Assembly (NCBI RefSeq): GCF_036702645.1
Contig: NZ_JAUBUO010000016.1
Coordinates: 28,186-92,185 of the forward strand
Reading direction: 5' to 3'
Origin: Microcoleus sp. Aus8_D1
Lineage (GTDB): Bacteria > Cyanobacteriota > Cyanobacteriia > Cyanobacteriales > Microcoleaceae
Length of the DNA: 64,000 nucleotides
The position numbers were made by a program, and so were the translations under genes. The notes under the pieces are model-generated. The model made no database searches. It was not told the DNA's origin and worked only from the letters and a program-made list of their open reading frames with translations. Shown here one piece after another: positions 9,495 through 48,063 of the stretch (its first letter is position 1; each line of letters begins with the position of its first letter).

Positions 9495-9761
9495 GGTTTT
9501 CTTGCCTTTTTTGTAGGTTTGTCCTTGATTTTTTGATTAATGATTCTTGACTGTTGACTCTTAGCTGTTATCTTAGTGCCGATCGCTCAACTGCCATAAT
9601 AATATTGGTTCTATCGTTCGGACTTCAGTCTTCTTTAAAGACTGAGGAACCGTTTTTCGATAGCGAGGAATTCAGTTCTCTTACAAAGGTTAAGGACTGA
9701 AGTCATGACTGCGAACCAAATTGCAGTTATTTTACCGGACTTGATCTTAGCTTTTAGCTAA

Positions 9762-10913: not shown

Positions 10914-12311
10914 TCACACTTTTTTAATTGCCATACTCTTAAGGTAATCTTCTGGCTTGTCCGGGTGAAATTCTTTGCCATCAAAGAACTTCTCTACGCC
11001 GCGAGACGTATTTTTGGGAATGTCAGCATCAGCAACTCCGGCTAATTTAGCCGCTGCTTTCCACAAGTCTTCGCGGTTGACTTTGCCGATAATTGCCTTA
11101 GAATCTGCCAAGGTTTTTGTGGGCAAGAAACCCCAGCGCACACTTTCGGTTAAGAACCACAAATCGTGGCTCTTGTAAGGATAGGAAACGTTACCGACTC
11201 CATCATTCCAGTAGAGCGTACTCATTTTGAAGTCGTTAATTTCTGGTTTGCCGTCGCCCATGACATACTTGCCTTCGTAAGGAGGAAGCAAAACTTCCTG
11301 CTTTACGTCAAAGAAGTTTTTGCCAGATACAATGGACACCAATTCGGCGCGATTTTCTGGTTTGTCGCACCACTGCTGTGCTTCAATTATTCCTGCTAAC
11401 AGGGCTTCGGTAGCTTTCGGGTGTTTGTCTACCCAGTCGCCGCGAATTGCGAGGTATTCTTCTGGATGTCCTTTCCAGATTTCGGCAGTTAGGGCGGACA
11501 AGAAGCCAATTTTTTCTTTGACAATCCGTAGGGGCCACGGGTCACCTGTACTGAAACCGTCCATGCTGCCGGTTTTCATGTTGGCCACGGTTTGGGCGGC
11601 TGGTACTGTTAGCAACTCGACATCTACGTCGGGATTGATGCCGTTAGCTGCTAGCCAGTAGCGAATCCACAAATCTTGATTGGCTTTGGGAAATGTGTAG
11701 GCTGCTTTAAAGGGCGTGCCTGCTTTCTTGAGTCCGAGGATGTAGTCTTGGGCGGATTTTTCTAGTTTGAGTCCGAGGCCTTTACCTTCATGTTTGGCTG
11801 CGATCGCAATTCCATTTCCCTGAGTGTTTAGCTGTAACAGCACGTACATCGGGATTTGGGTGCTGTTTTTGGTGATCAGGCCTTGGCTAATCAAGTAGGG
11901 CATCGGCATTTGCCACTGGCCGCCGTCAATGCCGCCACCAGCGGAGCCGATTTCTACGTTGTCTCTTGCCGAACCCCAGTTGGCTTGTTTGGCAATTGTC
12001 ACCTCGGTCATGCCATATTTGGCAAAGAAGCCTTTTTCTTGGGCAATAATTAAAGGTGCTGATTCGACGATCGGGATATATCCCAATGTAATCTTCGTGC
12101 TTTCGATGCCTTCTACTCTTTTCTCGTTGGCCACAGCAACTGCTGATGTGGCAGCAGGGACTGCGCCGCCGGCACCTGAACCACCGCCAGCACTAGCACT
12201 CGGTTCGGGGGGATTTCCCAAACAGCCTTTGAGCAGTATGGAACTGACGGCAGATGCACCTGCTGTCACGATAAATTTGCGCCGCGAAAAATTTTCTGAA
12301 AATTTTGTCAT
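10914..12311 (-). CDS. nrtA/cmpA: Nitrate/bicarbonate ABC transporter periplasmic substrate-binding lipoprotein (NrtA/CmpA family)
   Basis: Tat-like RRKF plus lipobox LKGC; Gly/Ala linker; conserved [38 protein letters not shown] blocks. Cannot decide nitrate versus bicarbonate from sequence alone. Confidence 0.85.
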
Positions 12312-13044
12312 AGCCTAGCCTCGCTCCAATACATAATCTTCTGTAACGACATCACTGAAGTTTATCAAAGCACTTTTTTGTTGTTCGCTAATTGGCCTTT
12401 AGCAAACTATTTTTAGCGCAGGGAAAGCAGGAGGGATCAAAAGATTTATTGCTAGCATAAGTCTTTCAACTATCCCTGCTGATTTTACACTTTTGATTAA
12501 CTTGATATTGCGATCGGCCAAGTTGCGTTAACTCGCCAACAGCGAGCTCCACGTTTTCCAGGCTTGATTATTCAGTTTACCGTACTGTAGCTGTAATTAT
12601 AAAACAAATATTAAATTTAAATGATAAGTATATGTTGTAGGATGTTGCGTTTTATTAAGTAGTCCTTGGTATTGGTGGTTTGTTTGACCCGAGCGGGAAT
12701 ATTTCACAAAAAGCTTACACTGCAAGCTTTTGGGCAGTTTCCCCCTGCCGGCATTCTCATTGTTGTCAATGAGTTTGCAAATCTCATACTTTTGGTATAT
12801 TGACCATATTTCAAAAATATTATATAAGCGGTTGAGGTGCTGCCGATCGAGCGATCGCCCGTGAATGCGGGGCTTATATGAGAAAAAAATCAAGTTTTGA
12901 ATGTTTTGCTGAGAGACAGGCTCCCAGCAAAACACTCAAAACTCATAATGGTCAAGTATTCCATTGTCGGTAAGTAGAAGTCCGATGGAAGTCGTCAAGC
13001 GTTAAGTCGTCAAGCGTGAAGTCGAAAGAACAACCATAATCAGA

Positions 13045-41507: not shown

Positions 41508-41574
41508 CAGAAACCGGGTTTTTGGAGAAAATCCTTCGCAGTAGTCCACCGATTAGGTAAAAACCCGGTTTCTT
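41508..41574. repeat. Family A hairpin element (opposite orientation)
   Basis: Interior is reverse-complement-like of the 40638 copy. Confidence 0.8.
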
Positions 41575-42122: not shown

Positions 42123-42187
42123 CAGAAACCGGGTTTTTCGCGTCTCCTTCGTTGTAGTCCACAGTAAGGGTCAAAAACCCGGTTTCT
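42123..42187. repeat. Family A hairpin element (opposite orientation)
   Basis: cagaaaccgggtttttcgcgtctccttcgttgtagtccacagtaagggtcaaaaacccggtttcttt. Confidence 0.8.
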
Positions 42188-42214
42188 TTGGGCTGCACGC
42201 CAAGTCATGAAAAC

Positions 42215-42455
42215 AAAAAAAAATCGCGCGCCGCCACTGGTTGCCCCTTCGTAAACCCCTCAGGACTAGACTGCTCAACTCCAGCGGGGCCGGGTACTGT
42301 GGGTCGTTGGCTTCGCAGAAGCCACACCGCAATACCAACAGTACCCGAAGCCCCGCACAGTCAAGAGCAGGCTAGTGATGCTTGTCTAGACTAAGCGCAA
42401 GGACGGCGATCCACCGCCCGGATTGCAAGGCTGTTTACCAATTTAAACGCGCGAT
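42215..42455. ncRNA. Candidate structured RNA or long imperfect palindromic element (~240 bp, GC-rich)
   Basis: Nested inverted repeats: AAATCGCGCG/CGCGCGATTT outermost, GACTAGAC/GTCTAGAC, CAGCGGGGCCGGGTACTGT/ACAGTACCCGAAGCCCCGC, inner GGCTTC-GCA-GAAGCC; no ORF support. Confidence 0.3.
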
Positions 42456-42463
42456 TTATTAAG

Positions 42464-44155
42464 TTATTGACACTGACGTGCGTGTTGCATTCGCAGCGCT
42501 AAAATGTGTTCGCAAGGGCCTTTGTACAGCTTGTTTTGCTGGTGCCAATTACAAGTACATTCTGCCTCAATTATACGCTCATCGGCATCAATTGTCAAGT
42601 GCGGATTCAAGGTTTTTTCCCGGTCTGTGACACTGCCTCGCACGGTGAATGCACCGGAAGAATCGCTGGTAAAATCGGTCACTTGTACCGCATTTTCACT
42701 CAAGAAAAGAGTTGCTTTTGATTCTCTTTCGTTGGCAAATCTCAAACGTTCTAAGGGCAAAGGTTCTCGGCTCAATTCCCGCACTCGGTACACCTGTTTG
42801 TTCAAATCGTAAATTGCCCTTCCCGCTTGCGTGTAGGCACTCAATGCACCCAACACTGACGCCCGATTTAACTTCAGTCTGGCGGCCAAACTGTCAGCAG
42901 TTTCTACCCAATTTTCTTTGAGTGCATCAAAGATTAATTGCTGCGTCCAAGCATCTACATCGGCGCGCGGGGCCATTAAATCAAAGTTACCGGATTGCGA
43001 CCAATCATTGGCACTCCATCCCGACAATCCTAGGGTAAATGACATATCGCCCAAATCGGCGACGTAAAAAGAAGGCATTCCCGTTCCTAACAGGTGAACT
43101 GTGAACTTTTTGGCGACGGGAATCAGTCTTTCGAGAATGTGAAGGCGGCGCCTTCCCCAAACTCGAATTTCCTGTGCTTGCGAACCAGTATAGGGCGATC
43201 GCGCGCAAACAACTTCCGTACCCCACGGATCGAAAATCACCCGCACCGGTTCCCCCGGATTCAGGATGTAGCGCATACTGCGCGGGCCTTGTTTCTCCTT
43301 GTGGCGGCGCAAAACAAAACAAATATTGTGGATGTCCATCGGGTGCAAATCAAACCGCACCGCCGGCAAAGACATCGCCGAACTAACTTGCAAAAATCCT
43401 CTCACCCAACTGTCAGGTAAGTCTATTTTGACTTCTTTAAAAGTCTCTTCATGCACCGTTTGAACTTCAAAACCCGAGGGATCTACTTGCAGCGAAGTAG
43501 TCTTGTAACTGCGGATTTTTTGAAATTCATCATAAAGCGCTGCCGAGTAGTCGATATTAGTCGTGCCGCAAGCAAACTCGCTGATATTTTTAAACACTTC
43601 GTAGCTGGCGCCGAGGCGGCCGTAACTCGACTCATCCTGACTGAAACACTCGAAAAATACCTCATCGGGATGTACTGTAATCACCGGATCGAGGACAAAC
43701 CAAGCATCGCGGTCTTTTTGATAAATGTAGTCAAAGTATTGCTGTTGGGCGCGATAAAAAGGTGCCAGACGTTGGTGTTGACGCCGAGTTAACTCGTTGA
43801 ACTCTGCTTGCAGCGGCTGAACTTTTTGGGCAACTTTTTGTTGGCGGCAGGCGATTAATTGCCAATCGATTTCTTGCTGTTGGGCTGCCCATTCTTTATA
43901 AGCTGTTTTGTCTTTGGGTTTGAAGCGCATATCGGAAACCACGACATCGTGCAAAGCGCTAATTGCTTCGCGAAAAGCGACATTTTGACGCAATTCTCCG
44001 ATAAAATAAGTGGGCGGACGTTTGGTGTCGGGAGAAAAAGACATTTGCGTGCTGCCGCCGCTTTCAGCAACTTCGGTATTTCCTTTGTAAGAGTAGTTAA
44101 ATTCCATAATATTTTTTTCAACTAGGTTCGTAGTGAGGACTTCAGTCCGCATCAA
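42464..44155 (-). CDS. SWIM zinc-finger domain protein (563 aa)
   Basis: C-terminal CxCx(n)CxH: AECTCNWHQQNKLYKGPCEHILAL; partner of the upstream WGR protein (E. coli YehQ-like arrangement). Confidence 0.75.
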   Translation of the reverse strand: MMRTEVLTTNLVEKNIMEFNYSYKGNTEVAESGGSTQMSFSPDTKRPPTYFIGELRQNVAFREAISALHDVVVSDMRFKPKDKTAYKEWAAQQQEIDWQLIACRQQKVAQKVQPLQAEFNELTRRQHQRLAPFYRAQQQYFDYIYQKDRDAWFVLDPVITVHPDEVFFECFSQDESSYGRLGASYEVFKNISEFACGTTNIDYSAALYDEFQKIRSYKTTSLQVDPSGFEVQTVHEETFKEVKIDLPDSWVRGFLQVSSAMSLPAVRFDLHPMDIHNICFVLRRHKEKQGPRSMRYILNPGEPVRVIFDPWGTEVVCARSPYTGSQAQEIRVWGRRRLHILERLIPVAKKFTVHLLGTGMPSFYVADLGDMSFTLGLSGWSANDWSQSGNFDLMAPRADVDAWTQQLIFDALKENWVETADSLAARLKLNRASVLGALSAYTQAGRAIYDLNKQVYRVRELSREPLPLERLRFANERESKATLFLSENAVQVTDFTSDSSGAFTVRGSVTDREKTLNPHLTIDADERIIEAECTCNWHQQNKLYKGPCEHILALRMQHARQCQ

Positions 44156-44300
44156 ATCCGGTTCGTAGTGAGGACTTCAGTCCGCATCAAATTCAGGTTC
44201 GTAGTGAGGACTTCAGTCCGCATAAAATCCAGTTCGTAGTGAGGACTTCAGTCCGCATCAAATTCAGAGGACTAAAGTCCTCACTACGAACACTTTATCA
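44156..44300. repeat. Tandem 36-bp direct repeat x4 (GTTCGTAGTGAGGACTTCAGTCCGCATCAAATYCRG) ending in an inverted partial copy that forms an ~18-bp hairpin
   Basis: Read directly; related single copies of GTAGTGAGGACTTCAGTCC at 37290..37312, 52395..52450, 60405..60440. Confidence 0.85.
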
Positions 44301-44369
44301 AATCTGCCTCCTACATTTAGCATCGATCGCCCTTTCCGACATCCCAATTCCACAAATCTTAACTAAAAA

Positions 44370-47300
44370 TCAACTCCTCACCTCAACCACAGGCTTTACC
44401 TGAATTGGCAAATCTATCTGAGGATAACGCCGGCGAATCTTCAGCATAGTCTCAATAGCCGCTGCTTTATCTGCGATCGCAATTGTAGCCGATTGCCTGG
44501 TTAAAATATCCGCAACAATCCCGGCCGCCGCCTCACTCTTTTGCGCCTCCGCATCCAGAAACGCAAAAACTCGGCGCTTCGCCACCCTTCCCTGATTCAC
44601 CCGCGACAAAACCGCGACCAAAAAAGGCGCTAATTCCCGCAATTTCTCAGGATTGCTTGCAGCATAACTCTCCAAATAATTAGTAGCAAACAACTGCATA
44701 TCCGCCGACGGATGCTCGCTAAACTTCAGCAAATAATCGTGTCCGGACTCATCCTGAAAATAGCGAATTACCAAATCTCTGCCGAATTGCCGCACATCTT
44801 CCCGAATGCTGTCGCAAAGACTAACCATAATTTCCGGAGTCCAATCTGCCTCAGTCAATTCCGTGCGAAAAATCCTGGCGGCAAATTCCCGCGAATCATC
44901 CCATTTTGCCTCCAGCAGCCGCACGGCTGACAGCATTTCTTGAGAATTGGCGCGAATCGCATCTAGCTTTTGCAAAAACATTTGTCTCGCAGATTCTCGC
45001 ACCGAAAAAATCTCGTGACTCGCCAGCTTGACAATCTCAATTGTATCAAACTCCGCCGCCCAATTCGTGCTATTTTTCACCAGCACAAATCCGCCTAATT
45101 CCTGCGCGACAGCAGACTTAGCTTTCAGCAGCAGCCAAGTCTTGTCCTTATCCATCGCCGACATCCACCCCGGAATATCTTGCCGCAGCAAATCGAGCAA
45201 ATAACTGTGTACTCCTTCCTGTCTTTCCGGTATCAGCAACACATCAATCAATTCCCCAGCAACCAGCGCTGCAAATTCGGGATATTCGGCGGCCAAACGC
45301 CGAATTACTGGTTTAATAGAATTGCGGATGTCGGCCAAAGCATTGACTGCCATTCCTACTATCAAACTTGTCTGAGAACTTGTTAGCGATTCGTCCGGTA
45401 ATTGACCGAATAACCTGATGCCAATTCTTCGAATTTGTTCGTAGGGCGACGCAATTAGCGATTCGATTAATTCAGACGGCAAATCAGCCGCACCGATTTC
45501 GTGATTCAGCAAAATTCTCGCCCCCAATTCCTGAACTTCCGGCACCGGATGCCGCAGCAAATCCAGGATAACTCCCAATCCCAAACTCCGCAGTTGTGGG
45601 GTAAAGTTGAGCAGGAGCGTATCGGCGATGTCTTTGGCTACAATTGAGGTATGAGTCGGAATGAATTCTGTTGGTTGAAATGTTAATAAATGGGCTATCA
45701 GTTTGCCAATTAGTAGCCTGACGGTTGCAGGGCTGAGAATTGATGAGTTGAGCAACCTGCGGGCAAATTGCCTGGTGTCTGCGTACAAGCTGGTTACTAG
45801 AGTAACAATTAATTCTGTATCTGATAAAATGCGATCGCGCTGTTCGTCAATCCAGTCAAAAGCTTGGGTTCTCGCTGGCACAAATATGCAGTTAACCAGC
45901 CCTAGAATTACTTCGCGGTGGGCTGGATATCGATGATATCCGTTTTGGACTGCCAAATTGAAACCCAGTTCGGCTGTAACTTCGTAAGGTACAGCAATCA
46001 GTTTGATTGCAGTGTCAGCATCTATCCCAGCTAAAAATTGCGGACAAGCTTTCAGCGCTTTCACAGCGAAATGGTGCACCGGGCGGCAGTTGCTGGCTAA
46101 TAACAATTGCAACAGCGCATCGGGATATTGTTCCCAAAGTTCGGGAAAAGCTTCTTCTCGCACTTCCGGCTCCGGATCTCCTGGTTTGTAACCTTCTCTG
46201 CAGCGCCACGCTTGCGAATTGGTAAAATAAGCATAGCGCGGGCTGTTTTCGTAGAGAATGCGGTTAAATGTTAAGTAACCGGCAAAGATATCCCATTCAG
46301 ATGAATAACTGATTTTATTCCAATTAGAGAAATCCCATTGATAATCAGCATCGCTAGTCCCCTTAGAGCGAATCCACTGATAATAAGTGATCTGCAAAAC
46401 TGCTTCGGCATCGCTATCAACGTATTGCAGCAAAATGCTGACAGCCATTTTTACATAATCAGCATCGCTTTCTTCGCCTAATTGTTTGAGAGTGCGCCAC
46501 ACCCTTTTAATTAAGTAGCTGCGCGTACTGCTGCTGTAGGCAATTCGGCAATTGGGACTCTGCATTTCCTCTAGAAAACTGCTGTTTGCAGTGTATTCAT
46601 TTTTGCCTGTTTGTTCGTTGTACGCCCAGTCTTGCTTTGTCAGATACCCGCCACCAGGAATGTTAATATACCAAGCATTGCTGCGGTACATGGCTTTTTC
46701 GTCCTCAAAGCGGCGGGCCACAATCGCAAATACTTCGGCGTCGCGACGGTATTCCGCCATTTTGAAGATGTGGCGGATTTGTTTAAAATAATGGGGTTTT
46801 AGCGGTGCAGTTTTTAAGATATCCAGTAATGCCGATCGCACAAACTGACTGTCAATCTGGTAAAGTCGATCGAGAACCGCAAAACGACTGCTATCTTCCG
46901 TGTCGAGTTCAACTTTCAATGCTGCTGAAAATTCCTCAGCGCTGCCGTTTGCAGCTAATTCGCGCAACTGTGGGGGTAGCAATTCTATTATGGACGATTC
47001 TAGGTGCGATCGCGCTTCCTCATCCGCCAACTTCAGCAATCCTTCAAAAGCAATTCTCCTCACAAACTCCGCAGTCGCAGCATCCCGATACAGCCGAGTC
47101 AGCGCCTCCACAGCGCCCTCGCCGCCGCACCAACCCAAACTCCAAGCAATACAGTAGTCTCGCAGCGGTTCTCCCGTACCGATTAAGTTAATCAGTCCCG
47201 GCCCGGCTTCGGTAATTTTCAGCTCCCCAGCGCGCCAAATAGCCCGTTCCAGAGGCCATTTAGGATTGCCAGCGCCGGCAAGACGGTTCAAAATAGCTTG

Positions 47301-47594
47301 TTGGCGCGTCTCGGCGCGAGGAAGTTCTGGCGCGGGTGCAACATCAGCAACGCTGGCTGCTTCCTGATAGCCTTTCTTTACCTTTTCCGCGACTAGCTTG
47401 TCGAAAACTTTTTCAGCTTTGGCCAAGGGCACTGGTGTATCGGTTTTTGTGCCTTCCTGGAGATTGGCGCCCCGCCGTCCGTAGCGAAAGTTGACCGAGT
47501 AGAGGTTTTCGCCGGTTTGACACAAATCGACTTCGTATACTTTATCCGATCGACCGTCCTGAAAATAAAGAGCCGTCCGCTTAATCAATTTCAT
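44370..47594 (-). CDS. WGR-domain protein with long HEAT/ARM-like repeat region (MolR-like, 1074 aa)
   Basis: N-terminal WGR: SDKVYEVDL...YSVNFRYGRRG...EKVFDKLVAEKVKKGY; remainder alpha-helical repeats. Confidence 0.75.
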   Translation of the reverse strand: MKLIKRTALYFQDGRSDKVYEVDLCQTGENLYSVNFRYGRRGANLQEGTKTDTPVPLAKAEKVFDKLVAEKVKKGYQEAASVADVAPAPELPRAETRQQAILNRLAGAGNPKWPLERAIWRAGELKITEAGPGLINLIGTGEPLRDYCIAWSLGWCGGEGAVEALTRLYRDAATAEFVRRIAFEGLLKLADEEARSHLESSIIELLPPQLRELAANGSAEEFSAALKVELDTEDSSRFAVLDRLYQIDSQFVRSALLDILKTAPLKPHYFKQIRHIFKMAEYRRDAEVFAIVARRFEDEKAMYRSNAWYINIPGGGYLTKQDWAYNEQTGKNEYTANSSFLEEMQSPNCRIAYSSSTRSYLIKRVWRTLKQLGEESDADYVKMAVSILLQYVDSDAEAVLQITYYQWIRSKGTSDADYQWDFSNWNKISYSSEWDIFAGYLTFNRILYENSPRYAYFTNSQAWRCREGYKPGDPEPEVREEAFPELWEQYPDALLQLLLASNCRPVHHFAVKALKACPQFLAGIDADTAIKLIAVPYEVTAELGFNLAVQNGYHRYPAHREVILGLVNCIFVPARTQAFDWIDEQRDRILSDTELIVTLVTSLYADTRQFARRLLNSSILSPATVRLLIGKLIAHLLTFQPTEFIPTHTSIVAKDIADTLLLNFTPQLRSLGLGVILDLLRHPVPEVQELGARILLNHEIGAADLPSELIESLIASPYEQIRRIGIRLFGQLPDESLTSSQTSLIVGMAVNALADIRNSIKPVIRRLAAEYPEFAALVAGELIDVLLIPERQEGVHSYLLDLLRQDIPGWMSAMDKDKTWLLLKAKSAVAQELGGFVLVKNSTNWAAEFDTIEIVKLASHEIFSVRESARQMFLQKLDAIRANSQEMLSAVRLLEAKWDDSREFAARIFRTELTEADWTPEIMVSLCDSIREDVRQFGRDLVIRYFQDESGHDYLLKFSEHPSADMQLFATNYLESYAASNPEKLRELAPFLVAVLSRVNQGRVAKRRVFAFLDAEAQKSEAAAGIVADILTRQSATIAIADKAAAIETMLKIRRRYPQIDLPIQVKPVVEVRS

Positions 47595-47919: not shown

Positions 47920-48063
47920 ATGGAAAACAAAGACGCAAAAGTAGGCTTCACAGAGTTCGCTGAAACCTGGAACGGTCGTTTGGCAATGCTGGGCTTCGTT
48001 ATCGGTCTGGCTACGGAATTCCTGACCGGTCAAGGCATTCTCGCTCAAATCGGTTTGATGTAA
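47920..48063 (+). CDS. hli: High-light-inducible protein (HLIP / one-helix CAB-like protein), 47 aa, below the ORF-track size cutoff
   Basis: Manual translation MENKDAKVGFTEFAETWNGRLAMLGFVIGLATEFLTGQGILAQIGLM with the ExxNGRxAMxGF chlorophyll-binding motif. Confidence 0.8.
   Translation: MENKDAKVGFTEFAETWNGRLAMLGFVIGLATEFLTGQGILAQIGLM

Follow-up and report, generated by a model that had tools for sequence, protein, structure and literature searches.

What system do two neighboring cyanobacterial genes serve, one coding for a very large protein that begins with a WGR domain and the other for a protein that ends in a SWIM zinc finger, and does the tandem 36-bp repeat lodged between them belong to it? 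The pair lies at positions 42464–47594 of a 64,000-nt stretch of Microcoleus sp. Aus8_D1 (assembly GCF_036702645.1, contig NZ_JAUBUO010000016.1, positions 28,186–92,185 of the forward strand), the whole of which is referred to below as the window. The original prediction, made from the letters alone, likened the pair to the molR/yehI and yehLMPQ region of Escherichia coli and regarded it as having no assigned function, and public annotation names the two proteins just “WGR domain-containing” and “SWIM zinc finger family”. We suggest that these genes code for the two accessory proteins of a type XIII retron (Mx162/Mx65 class) on the Microcoleus chromosome, and that the entire retron lies within the window, a reading to which we assign a probability of roughly 80%. 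The PADLOC models for the type XIII WGR protein, SWIM protein, and reverse transcriptase (RT), i.e., WGR_XIII, SWIM_XIII, and RT_XIII, all match. A published system assignment thus exists for such pairs (Mestre et al., 2020, PMC7736814). What is new here is another type XIII retron of an already known kind, which the original prediction did not recognize.

Assignment to Type XIII Retrons

Profiles were drawn from PADLOC (the three retron type XIII models), Pfam, NCBIfam, and Rfam, and relatives from a set of 80 related loci, cyanobacterial and non-cyanobacterial (labeled L001–L080). The protein-coding genes of the proposed retron are as follows:

44370–47594, minus strand: protein with a WGR domain and a HEAT/ARM solenoid (1074 aa), type XIII accessory protein, Mestre cluster 216_1
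42464–44107, minus strand: SWIM protein (547 aa), primary type XIII accessory protein, Mestre cluster 114_1
37334–38731, minus strand: retron reverse transcriptase (465 aa), type XIII/clade 10, PADLOC RT_XIII at 6.5e-199

Type XIII was defined by the combination of an RT of clade 10 with proteins of clusters 114_1 (an acidic DEDE motif, a winged helix, and a SWIM finger of the form CxCx12CxH) and 216_1 (a WGR-like protein with HEAT/ARM repeats), its classical members being Mx162 (Retron-Mxa1), Mx65 (Mxa2), Ne144 (Nex2), and Sa163 (Sau1) (Mestre et al., 2020, PMC7736814). The window SWIM protein has the DEDE motif, the winged helix, and the C-terminal CxCx12CxH, and matches SWIM_XIII at 2.2e-247. 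The WGR gene is located just upstream on the same strand, across a 262-bp spacer, and WGR_XIII matches its product over the entire length (E = 0, 1253 bits). The two genes occur in this same-strand order in 63 of the 80 related loci, so the pair is strongly co-conserved in other genomes, as originally expected.

The RT open reading frame (ORF) is full length and retains the NAQPH (NAxxH), YADD, and VTG motifs. It scores 660 bits against RT_XIII and 307 bits against the next PADLOC model, and the 25 best of its 70 PADLOC matches are retron models only. Its closest relative in the PDB is the RT of retron Ec86 (3e-45), and it falls below every curated NCBIfam cut-off. A second ORF of 465 aa in the window (10914–12311, minus strand) was rejected as an RT relative (BLASTP E 2.8, no PADLOC match), the equal length being coincidental.

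In common with type XIII retrons, the window locus has the RT clade, the SWIM protein with its DEDE motif, winged helix, and CxCx12CxH finger, the WGR and HEAT/ARM partner, the HEAT gene placed before the SWIM gene, and an msr-msd region that has terminal inverted repeats as well as a long msd hairpin. The distribution, too, is chromosomal and vertically inherited in both. The window locus differs from type XIII retrons in its cyanobacterial host, in an RT that is 3.5 kb away from the non-coding RNA (ncRNA) and behind an RNase III gene (rnc), and in a putative ncRNA promoter of its own within the SWIM gene. The same three-gene HEAT-SWIM-RT cassette is also found on a Clostridium butyricum megaplasmid, at 32% identity.

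The msr-msd Non-Coding RNA

Directly downstream of the SWIM gene is a region with the organization of a retron ncRNA, consisting of the following parts:

42214–42467, minus strand: retron ncRNA gene (msr-msd), directly 3' of the SWIM stop
42448–42460, minus strand: a1 arm
about 42397–42427, minus strand: msr hairpin
about 42265–42376, minus strand: msd hairpin
42218–42230, minus strand: a2 arm
42215–42223, minus strand: T-run

The two arms form a pair of 13-nt inverted repeats that encloses 217 nt, and the predicted fold of the region comprises a terminal stem with one short and one long hairpin (minimum free energy -115.9 kcal/mol, z -5.8). Terminal inverted repeats, one to three msr hairpins, and a long msd hairpin make up the standard msr-msd architecture (Mestre et al., 2020, PMC7736814), and all of these are present at 42214–42467, with conserved G residues following the a1 arm (TTGGTAAAC). 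No Rfam family covers this RNA; a scan of 34–50 kb at E ≤ 1 returned only sub-threshold microRNA (miRNA)-like matches on hairpins and no retron family.

Conservation of the ncRNA extends to both its sequence and its structure. By blastn it was found at 69 places in the 80 related loci, at 70–97% identity (97% to close relatives), and an nhmmer profile detected copies in 71 of the 80 and exactly one in the window (42214–42467, E 5.5e-78), with no second copy near the window RT. In the 61 loci that could be classified, every copy is located just 3' of SWIM, just 5' of RT, or both. Two copies, one by SWIM and one by RT, are present in L015, L026, L038, L050, L053, L056, L062, L063, and L080, and L065 has four matches to the ncRNA profile at 11735–12573, where the blastn matches are partial and msr-like.

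Covariation was analyzed with RNAalifold on a 44-sequence alignment (A1) of ncRNA copies, which gave 45 pairs, 30 of them with compensatory double changes. Pairing is retained in 93.8% of alignment cells vs. 31–43% when the partners are slid by 1–3 columns, and double changes occupy 267 cells vs. 33–59 in the slid controls; the observed values were reached in 0 of 500 shuffles. The arms a1 and a2 vary in sequence among lineages and still pair in 36 of 42 sequences (z < -3), the median duplex energy being -30 kcal/mol vs. -13.7 kcal/mol in shuffles. Directly behind the a2 arm, a T-run is found in 59 of 79 ncRNA copies. This run of 5–9 T persists even where the RT gene begins within ~120 nt, and may be either a terminator or an element recognized by the RT.

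A Promoter Embedded in the SWIM Gene

The 3' part of the SWIM gene contains a motif that matches the promoter consensus at every position:

42570–42598, minus strand: promoter TTGACA-17-TATAAT, in the SWIM codons LTIDADERII, ~106 nt before the stop, 12/12 consensus match

The motif recurs at the same SWIM codons, with at least 10 of 12 matches, in 54 of the 64 loci scored. A synonymous-site test over 56 loci showed strong preferences for the codons that make up the two promoter elements, namely TTG for Leu (54/56, background 21%), ACA or ACG for Thr (55/56, background 36%), CGT for Arg (52/56, background 20%), and ATA for Ile (43/50, background 13%), while the Asp and Glu codons of the promoter spacer vary freely. 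This pattern indicates that synonymous-site selection, acting on the nucleotides themselves, keeps the embedded promoter. Most of the divergent loci have lost the motif (L064–L080, comprising Gloeobacterales, Acaryochloris, Chamaesiphon, Tumidithrix, and non-cyanobacterial metagenome-assembled genomes; the Pseudanabaena loci were outside the scored set), and most of these loci also lack an ncRNA adjoining SWIM.

The embedded promoter probably drives the msr-msd RNA, which would then be an autonomous transcription unit, delimited by this promoter at one end and by the a1/a2 stem and T-run at the other. If the msr-msd RNA is transcribed separately in this way, the RT would act on it in trans.

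The Two Accessory Proteins

As originally predicted, the 1074-aa protein starts with a WGR domain (Pfam WGR at residues 8–80, E 7e-9) and continues with helical repeats, seen as HEAT_2 at residues 116–186 in Pfam (E 6e-8). Its AlphaFold model (predicted local distance difference test 82.5) consists of a WGR sheet and helical repeats at 93–298 and 484–1056, which are interrupted by an alpha/beta insert at ~300–480 that gave no Pfam match at E ≤ 10. Structure comparison of the model found resemblance only to generic HEAT/ARM solenoids and one WGR protein, and a PDB sequence search gave only generic alphaRep and WGR matches. An NCBI entry from “unclassified Microcoleus”, annotated merely as a WGR-domain protein, matches it at 100% identity. 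NCBIfam contains no model for either the WGR-HEAT or the SWIM accessory protein.

The C-terminal SWIM finger of the downstream protein was likewise borne out (Pfam SWIM at residues 506–538, 20.6 bits vs. a cut-off of 19.6, motif CxCx12CxH). Its length was not: the 563-aa reading begins at a TTG within the repeat, and the start is assigned to the ATG at 44107, giving 547 aa, because the 120 SWIM homologs compared are mostly 545–550 aa long (one is 526 aa) and nearly all span 99–100% of the query. Across the 80 loci the SWIM protein is 67–95% identical, with 71–95% among the loci labeled cyanobacterial, including Gloeobacterales and Pseudanabaena, and ~70% identity to non-cyanobacterial relatives.

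No solved relative of the SWIM protein was found by PDB sequence search. Its predicted model is laid out as N-terminal helices, a PCNA-like two-domain clamp module (~140–370), a winged helix (~385–445), a beta domain, and the SWIM finger. As in sliding clamps, the modeled monomer has two topologically repeated beta-alpha-beta domains. Five invariant acidic residues (D140, D148, E153, D186, and E225) are located in or beside predicted beta-strands of the first clamp-like domain, and invariant Arg and Lys residues (R236, R267, R268, R319–321, K197, and R199) are found on the four helices of the module, where they would have the appearance expected of DNA-facing clamp helices. Mestre et al. (2020, PMC7736814) read the invariant acidic residues as a transposase-like DEDE motif; on the basis of the model, we interpret this “DEDE/transposase-like” region as part of the putative PCNA-like clamp fold.

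The module shows no detectable sequence similarity to PCNA, 9-1-1, or beta sliding clamps, to which the prediction for the monomer alone likens it, and residues ~115–385 gave no Pfam match at all at E ≤ 10, the clamp families PCNA, Rad9, Hus1, and DNA_pol3_beta included. Unlike these clamps, it is part of a chain that also contains a winged helix and a SWIM finger, and it has invariant acidic residues that sliding clamps lack. In a literature search of the searchable library, we found no paper tying retrons to a clamp fold.

Proposed Function and Its Alternatives

We propose that the RT would prime from a branching G of msr and copy the long msd hairpin into a multicopy single-stranded DNA (msDNA) of ~150 nt. 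The msDNA-RT particle may then be bound by the WGR-HEAT solenoid and by the SWIM protein, for which a PCNA-like clamp, a winged helix, and the finger are predicted, and these two proteins would form the sensing or output part of the complex. The comparison is with retron Ec86 (type II-A) and other solved retrons, which have a homologous RT (3e-45 for Ec86) and the same logic of a1/a2 arms, msr hairpin, and msd hairpin, and in which the msDNA-RT particle holds an effector, a feature that we extend to the window system by inference. The effectors themselves are unrelated, being nucleoside deoxyribosyltransferase-like and other proteins in Ec86-type retrons vs. the clamp-like SWIM and WGR-HEAT proteins here; further, Ec86-type loci are compact and mobile, and the window RT carries an N-terminal extension of ~130 aa. 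By analogy, the role would most likely be phage defense triggered upon disturbance of the msDNA particle, an assignment that we make tentatively, at slightly less than even odds.

Several observations weigh against the reading as a whole. Neither accessory protein has a toxin or nuclease domain recognizable by Pfam or structure comparison, and the clamp fold of the SWIM protein is that of a predicted model, to which no sequence-level match was found. The msDNA, the transcript, and the protein interactions of the window retron are deduced from sequence. A literature search found no experimental defense test for any type XIII retron, and likewise nothing on type XIII function or on the 36-bp repeat sequence. 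The high conservation of the SWIM protein is unlike that of typical defense genes; no phage or viral copies were found in INPHARED and IMG/VR, and the plasmid matches are almost all on large non-mobilizable replicons. Finally, the ncRNA and the RT are not contiguous as in a textbook retron, being separated by the span from 42214 (end of the ncRNA) to 38731 (start of the RT), and in 14 of the 61 loci informative for layout no RT is present within the 8–10 kb in which it was looked for, so that the pair might act without an RT.

Some of these observations would also fit a domesticated retron, that is, a vertically inherited chromosomal machine with a non-defense role in DNA/RNA metabolism, in which the clamp-like protein and the WGR-HEAT scaffold act on an msDNA cofactor, e.g., in repair, replication restart, or genome maintenance. 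The SWIM protein is as conserved among the cyanobacterial loci, down to Gloeobacterales, as the neighboring RNase III, the ncRNA is conserved in both sequence and structure, and the RT tree broadly follows taxonomy. Phage and viral copies were not found and mobilizable plasmid copies are almost absent; there is no toxin domain, and the predicted PCNA-like, winged helix, WGR, and HEAT folds are those commonly seen in DNA-transaction factors. Mestre et al. (2020, PMC7736814) reported a correlation with 16S and proposed domestication. However, every retron with a tested function is anti-phage (Millman, 2020, and later work), the RT is lost or unlinked in many loci, which would be odd for an essential function, and toxin-antitoxin genes pile up in and around the locus, resembling a defense island. 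In addition, early deletion mutants of Mx162 in Myxococcus are reported to have shown no obvious phenotype, which also speaks against it. We regard domestication as possible, and as somewhat less likely than defense.

A more specific version appears unlikely to us. It holds that the SWIM partner is a true PCNA/9-1-1-like clamp ringing or capping the msDNA hairpin, within an ancient, vertically inherited cellular machine that is not primarily anti-phage, and that the ncRNA is autonomous and served by an RT acting in trans, with RNase III as a recurrent fourth component by which the precursor is processed at its a1/a2 duplex.

Mx162, of type XIII, was the first retron to be discovered (1984), and the window locus offers testable handles on what the accessory proteins of Mx162-type retrons do. 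The predicted clamp core would replace the idea of a transposase-derived DEDE domain and suggests direct binding of the msDNA hairpin. The putative dedicated promoter in SWIM-finger codons would make the ncRNA an independent gene, which would explain the frequent unlinking of the RT in cyanobacteria. The recurrent pairing of rnc and RT, described below, provides a third handle.

Split Organization and Linkage to rnc

The window RT shares its strand with the ncRNA and the SWIM gene and follows them at distances of 3.5 and 3.7 kb, respectively. Between the ncRNA and the RT are a ycf66-like ORF, three hairpins resembling miniature inverted-repeat transposable elements (MITEs), a small plus-strand ORF, a NYN gene, and the RNase III gene:

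38856–39629, minus strand: RNase III gene (rnc), TIGR02191 equivalog (224 bits vs. a cut-off of 166), also found by Pfam

Such a layout recurs among the 61 informative loci. WGR, SWIM, ncRNA, and RT are contiguous in 17 of them, and in 27 the RT is found 0.65–7.5 kb downstream. Pipelines that demand adjacent RT, ncRNA, and accessory genes will miss or mislabel split retrons of this kind.

The separation raises the question of whether the WGR-SWIM pair is independent of the RT, as an autonomous two-gene module in a split or decaying retron locus. Unrelated genes stand between the pair and an RT that is 3.5 kb off, and the 14 relatives without an RT within 8–10 kb would fit such a module, as would a plasmid of Streptomyces sp. 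NBC_00272 (NZ_CP108069.1; L083 7767–11842), where a SWIM_XIII-like protein (9e-49) is followed by a large helical DUF6493/DUF7824 protein. The Streptomyces protein is homologous to the window SWIM protein over residues 139–540 at 27% identity and lacks the N-terminal 130 residues, and the pair, having neither RT nor WGR, is a retron-free relative of the module. Against independence, the window RT is of full length and has kept every catalytic motif, the window ncRNA shares 97% identity with its counterparts in close relatives, and its putative dedicated promoter is a perfect consensus. Further, of the 14 loci that have no RT nearby, 11 keep the ncRNA beside SWIM, which is sensible only if an RT elsewhere uses it, and co-evolution of the RT and the WGR-HEAT cluster has been found (Mestre et al., 2020, PMC7736814). 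We consider an RT-independent pair improbable, and retain the type XIII retron with a split layout.

The rnc gene is directly 5' of the RT gene, with a gap of 124 nt. The same adjacency is present in nine other loci (L001, L002, L004, L008, L009, and L010, which are of the Microcoleus/Tychonema type, and L039, L041, and L055), and the RTs behind rnc fall into at least four separate branches of a neighbor-joining RT tree. The material between the ncRNA and rnc differs among these loci. As a hypothesis only, this recurrent neighbor may be a fourth component of the system that, e.g., cuts the a1/a2 duplex.

The Repeat Between the WGR and SWIM Genes

The spacer between the two accessory genes contains the following element:

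44124–44291, no strand assigned: four direct 35/36-bp repeats (44124–44267) and one inverted copy (44269–44291), a dispersed intergenic repeat

Tandem Repeats Finder reports a period of 35/36 with 4.1 copies and 91% matches, the inverted copy is 96% complementary to the direct ones, and a long hairpin is predicted for the spacer RNA (-91 kcal/mol, z = -6.2). The four tandem repeats, the inverted copy, and the hairpin were thus correctly described at the outset, except that the inverted copy precedes the direct ones when read along the coding (minus) strand. A 23-nt core of the repeat occurs eight times in the window vs. none expected by chance, the copies outside the spacer being at 9694, 37296, and 52393, all intergenic. 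Among the relatives, it is mainly the Microcoleus-type loci that contain the core; L013 (Scytonema) has one copy, and L002 contains ten alternating copies upstream of a histidine kinase gene. The window copy 3' of the RT (37294–37318) is single, and the same repeat follows the RT in L002, L004, and L008.

The repeat had been presented as a feature of the gene pair. Its core is absent from the WGR-SWIM spacer in all 63 related loci that have one, and this spacer ranges from 1 to 6644 bp, being ≤200 bp in 33 of them and 93 bp with no insert in L004. What it contains also varies, with HicA/HicB-like toxin-antitoxin mini-genes in L001 (9300–10000) and L002 (9290–10000) and a ycf66-like ORF in L006, L008, L009, and L010. 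Because no relative has the repeat in its spacer and the size and contents of the spacer vary, the sequence comparison indicates that the array is a lineage-specific passenger in an insertion hot-spot and not part of the retron, with a local effect on read-through being possible. A CRISPR-like array was considered and rejected, as successive units adjoin one another directly, with no spacers, and lone copies are scattered through further intergenic regions.

Comparison With the E. coli yeh Cluster

E. coli K-12 does have a cluster with WGR and SWIM proteins, as originally pointed out, consisting of yehF (WGR), the pseudogene yehH, yehI (DUF4132), yehL (MoxR), yehP (VWA), and yehQ (SWIM), and it resembles the window pair in bringing together genes for a WGR protein, a large helical protein, and a SWIM-finger protein. 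The similarity is limited to small domains, however. The SWIM protein aligns with YehQ over the finger motif only (BLASTP E 0.07), the WGR-HEAT protein aligns with YehF over the WGR domain only (E 4e-5), and its match to YehI has an E of 1.5. The SWIM finger is at residues 56–88 in YehQ vs. 506–538 in the window protein. Neither YehQ nor YehI matches the PADLOC type XIII models, and orthology with MolR, YehI, or YehQ was ruled out on these grounds.

The DUF4132 domain that had been suggested as a Pfam check matches YehI at 2e-47 and is absent from the 1074-aa protein, in which only WGR and HEAT_2 were found. In the yeh cluster, the partner genes encode a MoxR AAA+ ATPase and a VWA protein, whereas the partners in the window are an RT and an ncRNA. 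The anticipated association with MoxR or VWA genes did not materialize among the window ORFs scanned with Pfam (37.3–55.2 kb), where the neighbors are a PAS histidine kinase, a response regulator, GH57, NYN, RNase III, and the RT. A MolR/Yeh-like WGR and SWIM pair with the repeat hairpin as a functional operon-internal element, for which the joining of YehF, YehI, MoxR, VWA, and YehQ in E. coli, the alignable WGR domains, and a very stable transcript hairpin that could locally affect read-through or RNA stability might be cited, is hardly credible given that the similarity ends at these small domains, that YehQ and YehI do not match the type XIII profiles, that DUF4132 is absent and no MoxR or VWA gene is among the ORFs scanned (37.3–55.2 kb), and that the repeat is missing from 63 of 63 relatives, some with spacers as short as 1–40 bp.

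Other Elements Around the Locus

In the window, a NYN ribonuclease gene (39722–40222) precedes rnc, and L039 and L041 have a small HNH-like ORF there instead; L041 also contains PIN/VapC-like modules between the ncRNA and rnc. The gap between rnc and RT holds four copies of the heptamer CAAAATC (~38735–38765), similar to the short tandem repeats of filamentous cyanobacteria.

The three MITE-like hairpins between the ncRNA and the RT, each of ~65 nt, are located at 42124–42187, 41509–41573, and 40639–40704. They consist of AGAAACCGGGTTTTT, 34–35 nt, and AAAAACCCGGTTTCT, and represent a dispersed repeat family distinct from the 36-bp repeat. Just 5' of the NYN gene is a perfect 32-bp inverted repeat with a 49-nt loop (40377–40489), which obtains a spurious plant miRNA precursor score in Rfam on both strands, and a terminator-like hairpin with 33-nt arms just 3' of the RT stop (37164–37235) also has a spurious miRNA match.

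The small plus-strand ORF (114 aa, 40816–41160) has no Pfam, PADLOC, or NCBIfam match and is flanked by a 24-nt inverted repeat (40787–40810 and 41149–41172). With copies in L001 and L008 at 92–94% identity, it may be a small mobile cassette. Divergent from the WGR gene is a 47-aa ORF (47920–48063, plus strand), below the length of the ORF list, which carries the ExxNGRxAMxGF motif of high-light-inducible (HLIP/CAB-like) proteins.

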